Assembly: GCF_036507355.1 (NCBI RefSeq)
Contig: NZ_AP027877.1
Direction: 5' to 3' (one strand)
From: Escherichia coli
Lineage (GTDB): Bacteria; Pseudomonadota; Gammaproteobacteria; Enterobacterales; Enterobacteriaceae
Length of the DNA: 64,000 nucleotides
The position numbers and the translations under genes were made by a program. The notes beneath the pieces are model-generated. The model did no database searches. It was not told where the DNA came from and saw only the letters and a program-made list of their open reading frames with translations. Below, piece after piece: positions 24,975-45,174 of the stretch (position 1 is its first letter; every line of letters starts with the position of its first letter).

Positions 24975-26318
24975 TTAAATCACACCCTGCGCCAGCATCG
25001 CATCGGCAACCTTCACAAAACCGGCAATGTTCGCGCCCTGCACGTAGTTGGTTTGCTCACCTTCACCACCATGCTCAACACAGGCATGGTGGATATCCAG
25101 CATGATGTGATGCAAACGTGCGTCAACTTTCTCGGCTTTCCAGCCCAGGCGCGCAGCGTTTTGCGCCATTTCAAGGCCTGACGTTGCTACACCGCCAGCA
25201 TTAGCCGCTTTACCCGGTGCAAACAGTACGCCTGCCTGCTGGAACAGTTCAGTCGCTTCGATGGTGGTTGGCATATTTGCCCCTTCAGCGACGGCTTTAA
25301 CGCCATTGGCGATAAGCTGATGCGCGGCGTCAACATCCAGTTCATTCTGGGTGGCGCAAGGCAGGGCGATATCAACCGGTACAGACCACGGCTGTTGGCC
25401 TTCGAGATAGACCAGACCAAATTCTTTGGCGTAATCTGCCACTCGACCATCGCGGCTGGCTTTGATTTCGATAAGACGTGCCAGTTTCTCTTTCGTGAAT
25501 CCGCTTTCATCAACTACAGTGCCGCTGGAGTCTGACGCAGTGATCACACGAGCACCAAATTCCATCGCTTTTTCGATAGCGTACTGGGCGACGTTGCCGG
25601 AGCCAGAAACGGAAACGCGCATTCCTTCAAAACCCATACCGTGGCGTTTTAGCATTGCTTCTGTGAAATAAACCAGACCGTAGCCGGTAGCTTCCGGGCG
25701 AATAAGACTGCCGCCAAATGAAAGGCCCTTACCGGTGAAGACGCAGGCGGTATTGTTGGAGAGCTTTTTCATCATCCCCGCCATAAAGCCGACTTCACGA
25801 CCACCAACCCCGATATCACCTGCCGGAACGTCGGTATCCGCGCCCAGGTGGCGATACAGTTCAGTCATCAGCGCCTGGCAAAAACGCATCACTTCACCTT
25901 CGCTTTTTCCTTTCGGATCGAAATCGCTGCCGCCTTTACCACCGCCCATCGGCAGAGTAGTCAGGGCATTTTTGAAGGTTTGTTCGAAGCCGAGGAATTT
26001 GAGAATGGAGAGGTTAACTGACGGATGGAAGCGCATACCGCCTTTGTACGGGCCGATGGCAGAGCTGAACTGCACACGCCATGCACGGTTGACCTGTACC
26101 TGATTGCGATCATCAACCCATACCACGCGAAACTGGATCACGCGCTCCGGTTCAACCAGACGCTCCAGTAATGACATCTGGCGATATTTTGGATTTTGTT
26201 CAAGAAAAGGCCAGAGTGTGGTCATTACTTCACGAACGGCTTGCGCGAACTCGGTTTGATTCGGGTCGCGCTTTTGGACATGGTTGAGGAATGACTCCAG
26301 AGAATATGTCTGATCCAT
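24975..26318 (-). CDS. gdhA: NADP-specific glutamate dehydrogenase
   Basis: 447 aa, MDQTYSLESFLNHVQKRDP..., Glu/Leu/Phe/Val dehydrogenase motif GGGKGG. Confidence 0.97.
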   Translation of the reverse strand: MDQTYSLESFLNHVQKRDPNQTEFAQAVREVMTTLWPFLEQNPKYRQMSLLERLVEPERVIQFRVVWVDDRNQVQVNRAWRVQFSSAIGPYKGGMRFHPSVNLSILKFLGFEQTFKNALTTLPMGGGKGGSDFDPKGKSEGEVMRFCQALMTELYRHLGADTDVPAGDIGVGGREVGFMAGMMKKLSNNTACVFTGKGLSFGGSLIRPEATGYGLVYFTEAMLKRHGMGFEGMRVSVSGSGNVAQYAIEKAMEFGARVITASDSSGTVVDESGFTKEKLARLIEIKASRDGRVADYAKEFGLVYLEGQQPWSVPVDIALPCATQNELDVDAAHQLIANGVKAVAEGANMPTTIEATELFQQAGVLFAPGKAANAGGVATSGLEMAQNAARLGWKAEKVDARLHHIMLDIHHACVEHGGEGEQTNYVQGANIAGFVKVADAMLAQGVI

Positions 26319-26553
26319 AGATATAAAACCCTTATATATTAATACGATTGTGCTTATGTTGTTTATGTCATGTGCTTTTGCAGTTTTCGACTATACCATC
26401 AAGAATGTGACGGTAAGCAAGAAAAAAATGACCCAGGAAAGCAAATTAATAACGAGAGTAATCTCATAACCAAATGCGATAACTCAGACGCTAAAGTTTT
26501 GCCGCCCGGCTACCGTTATCAGTAGCAGAGACAATAACGTTAAGGAGTTCCCT

Positions 26554-26826
26554 GTGAGTCGAGCATTGTTCGCCGTAGTATTAGCATTTCCATTAATTGC
26601 ACTGGCTAACCCGCATTATCGTCCGGACGTGGAGGTTAACGTACCGCCAGAAGTGTTCAGTTCAGGCGGGCAGTCAGCGCAGCCCTGTACTCAGTGCTGC
26701 GTTTATCAGGATAAAAATTATTCTGAAGGGGCGGTAATTAAAGCCGAAGGAATACTGCTGCAATGCCAGCGGGATGACAAAACCCTTAGCACTAATCCGC
26801 TGGTCTGGCGGCGCGTAAAGCCATAA
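26554..26826 (+). CDS. ynjH: DUF1496 secreted protein YnjH
   Basis: 90 aa with signal peptide and Cys-rich mature part; GTG start. Confidence 0.8.
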   Translation: MSRALFAVVLAFPLIALANPHYRPDVEVNVPPEVFSSGGQSAQPCTQCCVYQDKNYSEGAVIKAEGILLQCQRDDKTLSTNPLVWRRVKP

Positions 26827-27199
26827 ACGCCTCTAATAATGGAATGTCAGCAGGGGCCAGCGGATATTGCAGCGCCTCTTCAGGTGAGCACCAGACCAGC
26901 GCCTGATGTTCATGTGCCTGTAACGTCCCGTGGAAGTCGGGTACGTGCCAGGCATGAAGATGGATAATCCGCCCCGAAACTTCTCGCTGATGGCTGGCTA
27001 CATACTCACCCACAGTTGCTTCGATGCCCAATTCTTCGTTTAACTCACGCACCAGCGCCTGCTGCTGGCTTTCATCCAGCTCGACTTTACCACCGGCAAA
27101 CTCCCATAATCCCGCCTGATCGCTCTGGGCGGGGCGTTGCGCGAGTAAAATTTTGCCATCACGTTCAATGATGGCGGCAACAACTTCAATCATTTTCAT
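26792..27199 (-). CDS. nudG: Nudix hydrolase NudG (CTP/5-methyl-dCTP pyrophosphohydrolase)
   Basis: 135 aa; Nudix box GGKVELDESQQQALVRELNEELGI; its 3' end overlaps the ynjH 3' end. Confidence 0.92.
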   Translation of the reverse strand: MKMIEVVAAIIERDGKILLAQRPAQSDQAGLWEFAGGKVELDESQQQALVRELNEELGIEATVGEYVASHQREVSGRIIHLHAWHVPDFHGTLQAHEHQALVWCSPEEALQYPLAPADIPLLEAFMALRAARPAD

Positions 27200-27285
27200 A
27201 AATTACACACGGGCAGATAAGCGAAAAATGCCATAATATCCGCACTGTTGCTCAATCAGAAAGGCTTTATATTTAAGGAGTGCCT

Positions 27286-27906
27286 GTGCTAGACCGCCAT
27301 CTTCATCCCCGGATTAAACCGTTGTTGCATCAGTGCGTGCGGGTTCTTGATAAACCGGGCATTACGCCAGATGGTTTAACATTAGTGGGATTTGCCATCG
27401 GCGTGCTGGCTCTGCCGTTTCTGGCGCTGGGCTGGTATCTGGCGGCGCTAGTCGTCATTTTGTTGAACAGGCTGCTTGATGGTCTGGACGGTGCGCTGGC
27501 GCGGCGCAGAGGGCTTACTGACGCGGGCGGCTTTCTTGATATTTCTCTCGATTTTCTTTTTTACGCGCTGGTGCCTTTTGGGTTTATCCTCGCCGCACCG
27601 CAGCAAAACGCCCTGGCAGGCGGCTGGCTGCTGTTTGCGTTTATCGGCACGGGTAGCAGTTTTCTAGCTTTTGCTGCGCTGGCGGCGAAACATCAGATTG
27701 ATAATCCCGGTTATGCGCATAAATCGTTTTATTATCTGGGGGGATTAACCGAAGGCACAGAAACGATCTTACTGTTTGTGCTGGGATGTTTATTCCCTGC
27801 ATGGTTTGCGTGGTTTGCGTGGATCTTCGGTGCGTTGTGCTGGATGACGACCTTTACGCGGGTGTGGAGTGGGTATCTGACGCTGAAGTCGCTCCAGCGT
27901 CAGTAA
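27286..27906 (+). CDS. ynjF: CDP-alcohol phosphatidyltransferase-family membrane protein YnjF
   Basis: Motif DGLDGALAR of CDP-alcohol phosphotransferases; start set to the second GTG (27286), well spaced from the AAGGAG Shine-Dalgarno; 27280 is possible. Confidence 0.82.
   Translation: MLDRHLHPRIKPLLHQCVRVLDKPGITPDGLTLVGFAIGVLALPFLALGWYLAALVVILLNRLLDGLDGALARRRGLTDAGGFLDISLDFLFYALVPFGFILAAPQQNALAGGWLLFAFIGTGSSFLAFAALAAKHQIDNPGYAHKSFYYLGGLTEGTETILLFVLGCLFPAWFAWFAWIFGALCWMTTFTRVWSGYLTLKSLQRQ

Positions 27907-43673: not shown

Positions 43674-45174
<1,501 letters not shown>

Follow-up and report, generated by a model that had tools for sequence, protein, structure and literature searches.

The ynjH/nudG junction

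The window examined here is a stretch of 64,000 nucleotides from the Escherichia coli chromosome (contig NZ_AP027877.1, assembly GCF_036507355.1), in which the genes ynjH and nudG converge and share the ends of their coding sequences:

26554..26826, plus strand: ynjH coding sequence, 90 amino acids, GTG start and TAA stop (open reading frame list)
26792..27199, minus strand: nudG coding sequence, 135 amino acids, ATG start and TAG stop (open reading frame list)
26792..26826, both strands: tail-to-tail coding overlap of ynjH and nudG, 35 bp

Read in the ynjH frame, the shared stretch extends from the last two bases of Thr80 to Pro90 and the stop codon; read in the nudG frame, it extends from the last two bases of Phe125 to Asp135 and the stop codon. 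The ynjH stop (26824-26826) falls within nudG codons 125-126, and the nudG stop (26792-26794) within ynjH codons 80-81. An AAGGAG Shine-Dalgarno sequence precedes the GTG start of ynjH. The same 35-bp overlap is present in the RefSeq annotations of strains W3110 and MG1655 (nudG 1841490..1841897, ynjH 1841863..1842135), and these annotations together with the open reading frame coordinates show that the convergent overlap of the original prediction is exact to the base. Positions 26300-27300 share 99.9% identity with strain NT1F31 and 98.8% with K-12, and the locus is found in 5423 of 5426 complete E. coli genomes at an identity of at least 95%. The overlap is already known, having been both annotated and published, and is an ordinary convergent overlap; for example, the 2018 update of GWIPS-viz illustrates strand-specific ribosome profiling with the 'overlapping genes nudG and ynjH' (PMC5753223).

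Both genes and both stop codons are supported by domains and orthologues

YnjH is a small DUF1496 protein with an apparent N-terminal signal peptide, as judged from its sequence. Its Pfam match (DUF1496, E=1.7e-24) covers residues 33-89 of 90 and reaches the last position of the profile. NudG is annotated as a MutT-type Nudix hydrolase (CTP / 5-hydroxy-CTP pyrophosphohydrolase), with a Pfam NUDIX match over residues 4-125 of 135 (E=4.7e-22) and a full-length match to PDB entry 2RRK ('CTP pyrophosphohydrolase'; E=9.5e-85). Compared to the K-12 protein in 2RRK, NudG of the window has Leu41 for Pro, Gln46 for Arg and Asn54 for Arg, none of them in the overlap. The end of the NUDIX domain at residue 125 coincides with the ynjH stop codon; since this stop spans NudG codons 125-126, the overlap corresponds to the part of NudG that lies past the Pfam domain.

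One of the two stop codons had been suspected of being mis-called, a suspicion that does not hold: both frames are validated by domains and orthologues, and the stops are fixed by the reading frames. An earlier conserved stop was sought in the orthologue alignments of both genes and none was found. The ynjH stop lies at the same place in all aligned loci, with the YnjH C-terminus kept even in genera in which the genes do not overlap, while the nudG stop takes several positions, always inside ynjH in the Enterobacteriaceae loci. A frameshift, a sequencing error or a spurious open reading frame could in principle create the appearance of an overlap between genes that do not truly share sequence, and the sole point in favour of such an artefact is that long convergent overlaps are generally rare. 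Against it stand the identical reading frames and overlap in K-12 and in the 5423 E. coli genomes, the domain matches of both proteins, which extend into or up to the overlap, the solved structure of the full-length 135-residue NudG, and the invariant ynjH stop paired with a nudG stop inside ynjH in 61 Enterobacteriaceae loci. An artefact thus has a negligible chance of being the explanation and is already refuted by the orthologue comparison.

Geometry of the junction across Enterobacterales

The orthologue scan drew on one genome per species and yielded 80 loci with a NudG relative, of which 77 carry a YnjH homologue directly downstream on the opposite strand. The coding sequences overlap by 23-44 bp in all 61 Enterobacteriaceae loci, most often by 35 or 41 bp, in genera including Escherichia, Salmonella, Citrobacter, Kluyvera, Kosakonia, Buttiauxella and Mangrovibacter. 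Among the Serratia, Yersinia and Erwinia loci, gaps of up to 100 bp are seen, and the largest overlap is 12 bp.

The geometry can be expressed as a spacer between the ynjH stop and the point at which the conserved NudG core ends, taken as the residue equivalent to Met126. Of the Enterobacteriaceae loci, 60 have a spacer of -5 nt and one has a spacer of -2, in an assembly whose YnjH is without its last residue; for Erwinia, Yersinia and Serratia, the values lie between +7 and +169 nt. Because the ynjH stop of Enterobacteriaceae lies 5 nt inside the NudG core, their NudG is read from the antisense strand of ynjH from residue 127 onward. The YnjH C-terminus, GTNPL(V/I)W.R(V/L)K., is kept to the last one or two residues whether or not the genes overlap, and the form TNPLVWRRVKP is nearly invariant across about 60 Enterobacteriaceae species. 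The NudG tails past residue 126 are unrelated in sequence between the overlapping and non-overlapping groups, and are mostly 4-7 residues long in the non-overlapping genera. In the E. coli isolate F829 (NZ_OY754443.1, 1071-2543), an IS5-like ISKpn26 element splits ynjH at about codon 78; the segment of ynjH that overlaps nudG is intact in this isolate and is annotated as a 'hypothetical protein'.

Selection within the shared stretch

Column entropies were calculated from the 61 loci that pass a filter for the Enterobacteriaceae type of junction, namely 60 Enterobacteriaceae and one Yersinia that passed by accident. The values by nudG codon position are:

Last 24 nudG-only codons: 0.63, 0.36 and 1.52 at positions 1, 2 and 3
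Inside the overlap: 0.31, 1.08 and 0.14 at positions 1, 2 and 3
Next 24 ynjH-only codons: 0.56, 1.37 and 0.48 at positions 1, 2 and 3

The usual pattern of a coding frame is seen in nudG upstream of the overlap and is flipped within it. In this antisense phase, the third positions of ynjH codons pair with the second positions of nudG codons; the variation within the overlap therefore tracks the wobble positions of ynjH and changes the amino acids of NudG. The pattern indicates that selection within the shared stretch is acting on YnjH. Substitutions in NudG include Arg/Pro/His at residue 129, Asp/Ala/Val at 130, Arg/Thr/Lys/Ile at 132 and Pro/Leu/Ser at 133. Ala131 is invariant because it is forced by Trp85 and Arg86 of YnjH on the other strand.

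A single spot is clearly constrained from both sides:

26822..26827, both strands: dual-constrained spot, with the ynjH TAA (26824-26826) lying across nudG Phe125/Met126

Six bases at this spot (26823-26828, with 26828 as the first base of the Phe125 codon) are invariant or nearly so, while 26822 varies. They comprise the TTT-AT of NudG Phe125-Met126 (26824-26828) and the wobble base of YnjH Pro90 (26823), and neither frame shows appreciable variation at them. At nudG offsets 372-376, the column entropies are 0-0.12, and the four-fold wobble base of Pro90 has an entropy of 0.17. Moving away from the NudG core, the entropy of the ynjH wobble sites rises (0.12, 0.78, 0.88, 1.12, 1.45), with reduced variation at those of Pro90, Lys89 and Val88 relative to those further in. 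This gradient is consistent with weak selection that reaches the end of the NudG helix but not past it; NudG residues 126-130 may be under some selection, in which case the tail is not entirely neutral. An additional constraint imposed by the NudG tail on synonymous sites of ynjH was considered and rejected, as the Pro90 wobble alone is clearly frozen and the mean four-fold wobble entropy of ynjH is 1.16 inside and 1.24 outside the overlap, a comparison of few sites.

A model of NudG built with AlphaFold2 on 71 orthologues has a mean pLDDT of 92.4 and places the last helix at residues 118-130, followed by a coil at residues 131-135 (pLDDT ~65). According to this model, the shared 35 bp are thus predicted to encode the last turn of the C-terminal helix of NudG and about five disordered residues.

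These data bear on whether the 35 bp are truly dual coding, with a functional NudG tail and purifying selection on both frames. The tail is fairly conserved across Enterobacteriaceae (ALRAARPAD-like), Ala131 does not vary, wobble variation at ynjH codons 88-90 is below average, and every NudG examined has at least four residues after 126, all of which would agree with a functional tail. However, suppressed wobble variation in both frames was found only around the ynjH stop, at 26823-26828. Variation instead peaks at the second positions of nudG, where it produces radical changes (129, 130 and 132), the constancy of Ala131 is imposed by YnjH, wobble entropy at the few four-fold sites is similar on both sides of the overlap boundary, and residues 131-135 form a low-confidence coil in the model. 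In addition, the tail varies from 6 to 12 residues, its length being toggled by a synonymous change in ynjH, as described below. Taken together, dual coding is quite unlikely.

A wandering nudG stop codon

NudG is 132, 135, 136, 137 or 138 amino acids long in Enterobacteriaceae, and its length depends on a site near the far end of the overlap:

26791..26794: stop toggle, with ynjH Thr80 ACT at 26791-26793 and the nudG TAG at 26792-26794

The nudG TAG at 26792-26794 is present only when ynjH Thr80 is encoded by ACT, and consequently a synonymous site in ynjH sets the length of NudG. All 21 loci with ACT have a NudG of 135 residues. Where Thr80 is encoded by ACA, ACC or ACG, the stop comes one to three codons later and NudG has 136-138 residues, unless an earlier TAA intervenes; the 132-residue forms end at this earlier TAA and are accompanied by Val84Ile in YnjH in three of four cases. 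A functional NudG tail is hard to reconcile with a length set in this way.

The overlap is a plain property of the sequence rather than a statistical signal, and the extent of the read-in is unremarkable. In the same antisense phase, the long open reading frames of the window contain approximately one stop per 21 codons, and a read-in starting at the stop codon of a convergent gene would have a median length of 22 codons, with 72% of cases reaching at least 10 codons. The observed read-in of 6-12 codons (9 in the window) matches chance expectation and needs no special explanation.

FliA control of ynjH and the strand of its promoter

ynjH belongs to the FliA (sigma-28) regulon in both E. coli and Salmonella (STM1300), with FliA binding at the gene and FliA dependence of its expression both reported, and its deletion leaves motility unaffected (PMC4183435; bioRxiv 10.1101/2020.09.09.289983). 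Two sequence elements upstream of the gene are relevant to this control:

26492..26519, plus strand: candidate sigma-28 promoter of ynjH, TAAAGTTT, 12-nt spacer, ACCGTTAT
26513..26540, minus strand: published ynjH FliA motif TAACGTTATTGTCTCTGCTACTGATAAC (PMC4183435 Table 2), on the opposite strand to ynjH and directed towards gdhA

The candidate promoter is a sense-strand sequence match to a TAAAGTTT-N11/12-GCCGATAA-like pattern. It agrees with the consensus in 13 of 16 positions, and 34 nt separate its end from the GTG start. Loci of Escherichia, Citrobacter and Salmonella have this sense-strand sigma-28 match equally far from the start codon. The plus strand of the window carries the reverse complement of the published motif TAACGTTATTGTCTCTGCTACTGATAAC, and outside Escherichia this motif is matched no better than background (8-10 of 16). 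The published strand assignment may be an artefact of the motif finder, helped by the palindrome TAACGTTA.

Terminators, RNA structure and the overlap of the transcripts

Since each mRNA must reach its own stop codon, the ynjH and nudG transcripts are complementary over at least 35 nt. That they overlap antisense, as the original prediction proposed, hence follows logically, and the published RNA-seq listing agrees: ExcludonFinder (2025) includes nudG-ynjH, cho-ves and ynjE-ynjF in its list of 165 convergent pairs whose transcripts overlap in at least 50% of 58 MG1655 RNA-seq sets (PMC12288877). The further claim that the junction leaves no space for terminators is consistent with a scan of 26200..27400, which revealed no site resembling an intrinsic terminator on either strand. 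Likewise, no G+C-rich hairpin flanked by an A-tract and a U-tract, as expected of a bidirectional terminator, occurs in 26200-27400, no hairpin with a U-tract appears in the folds of the two 3' regions, and positions 26000-27600 have no Rfam match at E-values up to 1. The folds of the 3' regions are not exceptional (z-score -1.2 on the plus strand and -2.8 on the minus strand).

One repeat flanks the overlap:

26798-26808 and 26891-26901: 11-bp perfect inverted repeat, arms CGCTGGTCTGG and CCAGACCAGCG, with 82 nt between the arms

The repeat exists because YnjH (PLVW) and NudG (ALVW) encode Leu-Val-Trp with the same codons on opposite strands. In other genera, 5-10 of the 11 positions are complementary, and the changes are not compensated; the repeat was thus rejected as a conserved RNA stem, being neither conserved nor covarying and explained by the Leu-Val-Trp codons. 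A structured RNA or hidden bidirectional terminator, of which this repeat would be an example, might nonetheless define both 3' ends, and the perfect complementarity of the arms and the minus-strand z-score are in line with such an element. The lack of a G+C-rich hairpin with a U-tract on either strand, the lack of an Rfam match, the plus-strand z-score of just -1.2, and the origin and uncompensated decay of the repeat all oppose it, making a hidden terminator highly improbable.

Base composition points to a different route of termination. Rho terminates untranslated antisense RNA in E. coli, and a candidate loading region lies beyond the ynjH stop:

26957..27125, plus strand: candidate Rho loading region, in C-rich, G-poor RNA continuing from ynjH into antisense nudG

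Windows of 78 nt across this region contain 32-42% C and 15-19% G, a C/G ratio of 1.7-2.5, and the RNA continuing past nudG has a milder bias of C over G just after the stop. On this basis, both transcripts are probably terminated in a Rho-dependent manner. The supplements of Adams et al. (PMC7815308) contain no entry for nudG or ynjH. Between 24975 and 27906, the strands interleave, with ynjH (plus) between nudG and gdhA (both minus) and nudG (minus) between ynjH and ynjF (both plus). Given that 26200-27400 is without a terminator-like site, nudG RNA left unterminated would continue through ynjH as antisense RNA in the direction of gdhA, and ynjH RNA would do the same through nudG in the direction of ynjF.

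Possible regulatory roles of the overlap

Excludons are overlapping transcripts of neighbouring genes on opposite strands and were first described in Listeria. If ynjH/nudG were a selected excludon, FliA-induced transcription of ynjH in motile cells would lower nudG expression through colliding polymerases and cleavage of the duplex RNA by RNase III, and the reverse would also apply. In keeping with this, nudG-ynjH is listed in the E. coli 'excludome' (PMC12288877), ynjH depends on FliA in both E. coli and Salmonella, the candidate sense-strand sigma-28 promoter is conserved, the -5 nt geometry is fixed across the family, and cho-ves likewise pairs a FliA-dependent gene with a gene for the avoidance of DNA damage. 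However, overlapping coding sequences automatically score as overlapping transcripts, so that the listing is not evidence of regulation, and the fixed spacer is more simply explained by indels at the junction being lethal to either reading frame. An effect of FliA on nudG expression was sought in the supplements of the FliA study, in which nothing on nudG is reported (PMC4183435). Furthermore, Erwinia, Yersinia and Serratia retain the gene pair with little or no overlap. A selected excludon is accordingly unlikely.

The cho/ves pair is the second convergent overlap in the window, as the original prediction had also stated, and the same 41 bp are shared in MG1655:

44287..44327: cho/ves overlap, 41 bp, with the ves-frame open reading frame ending at 44327 (plus strand) and the cho open reading frame ending at 44287 (minus strand)

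Closely spaced convergent genes are frequent in this part of the chromosome. Ten convergent junctions are present in the MG1655 equivalent of the window, two of which overlap, namely cho/ves (41 bp) and nudG/ynjH (35 bp). Two others are very tight, with 3 bp between the stops of tcyP and ydjO (MG1655 1812325/1812329; window ~56360) and 8 bp between those of ynjE and ynjF (MG1655 1840774/1840783; window ~27910). Four of the ten junctions are hence without room for an intergenic terminator. ves is also FliA-dependent (PMC4183435), and in both overlapping pairs a FliA-dependent gene (ynjH, ves) faces a partner associated with avoidance of DNA damage (nudG, cho).

Because two FliA-driven genes in the window overlap such partners, it can be speculated that FliA uses convergent genes without terminators as antisense switches, whereby the ynjH and ves transcripts of motile cells lower nudG and cho. 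The basis for this proposal is that both pairs lie in the window, have overlaps of 35-41 bp and appear in the excludon list. If true, motility would be linked to altered mutation avoidance via nudG (nucleotide-pool sanitation) and cho (a UvrC-like nuclease). Such a general switch is a long shot.

Proposed origin of the overlap

The reading favoured here, with a probability of roughly 0.85, is that the ynjH/nudG overlap is real and ancient, joins two true genes tail to tail and is essentially neutral. Overlaps of this kind arise by loss or displacement of a stop codon. In the ancestor of Enterobacterales, nudG and ynjH would have converged with almost no spacer. The ancestor of Enterobacteriaceae then probably lost some 10-50 nt, a deletion that would have removed the original NudG tail, its stop codon and the remaining spacer, and would have shifted the end of ynjH to a point 5 nt within the conserved end of the NudG core. 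In Erwinia, Yersinia and Serratia, a spacer of a few tens of nucleotides is still present between the genes. After the deletion, the nudG frame would have run along the antisense strand of the C-terminal ynjH codons until a chance stop, 6-12 codons further on (9 in the window), leaving the NudG tail as a passenger with its sequence and length set by ynjH. A deletion in Enterobacteriaceae is the direction of change that we infer; insertions in the other families also fit, because the spacers of the outgroups vary.

With neither intergenic DNA nor an intrinsic terminator at the junction, each mRNA necessarily extends into the other gene, and the sigma-28-driven ynjH transcript and the nudG transcript are partly complementary. 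Both are most likely ended by Rho acting on untranslated antisense RNA.

Practical implications

The value of the ynjH/nudG overlap is mostly practical, and it opens no long-standing question. Annotation pipelines should leave the overlap unrepaired, since it is real. Deletion or tagging of the 3' end of either gene alters its partner. The design of the Keio deletions is said to keep approximately 21 nt at the 3' end, and so would cut into the overlapping partner. The ynjH deletion primer of the FliA study retains codons shared with nudG (PMC4183435 supplements). Expression of the two genes is confounded in data that are not strand-specific. The locus also serves as a teaching example, in which the C-terminus of one gene is a passenger of the other strand and its stop codon is toggled by a synonymous site of the partner.

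Comparison with known systems

Several known arrangements resemble ynjH/nudG to different degrees. Bidirectional intrinsic terminators are similar in that they also serve convergent genes with a common 3' zone; however, ynjH/nudG has neither a hairpin flanked by A/U tracts nor intergenic DNA. The likeness to excludons is that the ynjH and nudG transcripts necessarily overlap and that the pair is included in the E. coli list (PMC12288877), whereas reciprocal expression has been demonstrated for the classic excludon, which also has a long antisense UTR, compared to a geometric overlap only at ynjH/nudG. Within the window, cho-ves is alike in having a convergent coding overlap (41 bp), a FliA-dependent partner (ves) and a place in the same excludon table (PMC12288877), but encodes other protein families. 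The closest correspondence is to convergent overlapping gene pairs of bacteria in general, which share 3' ends over tens of bases and in which a C-terminal extension is encoded antisense to the partner. ynjH/nudG has the three features of such a pair, in that both genes are real, each stop lies inside the other gene and the arrangement is retained in orthologues. Its overlap is older and more stable than many, extending across the family, and it is clear which partner is under selection; in no essential respect does it differ from other convergent overlapping pairs.
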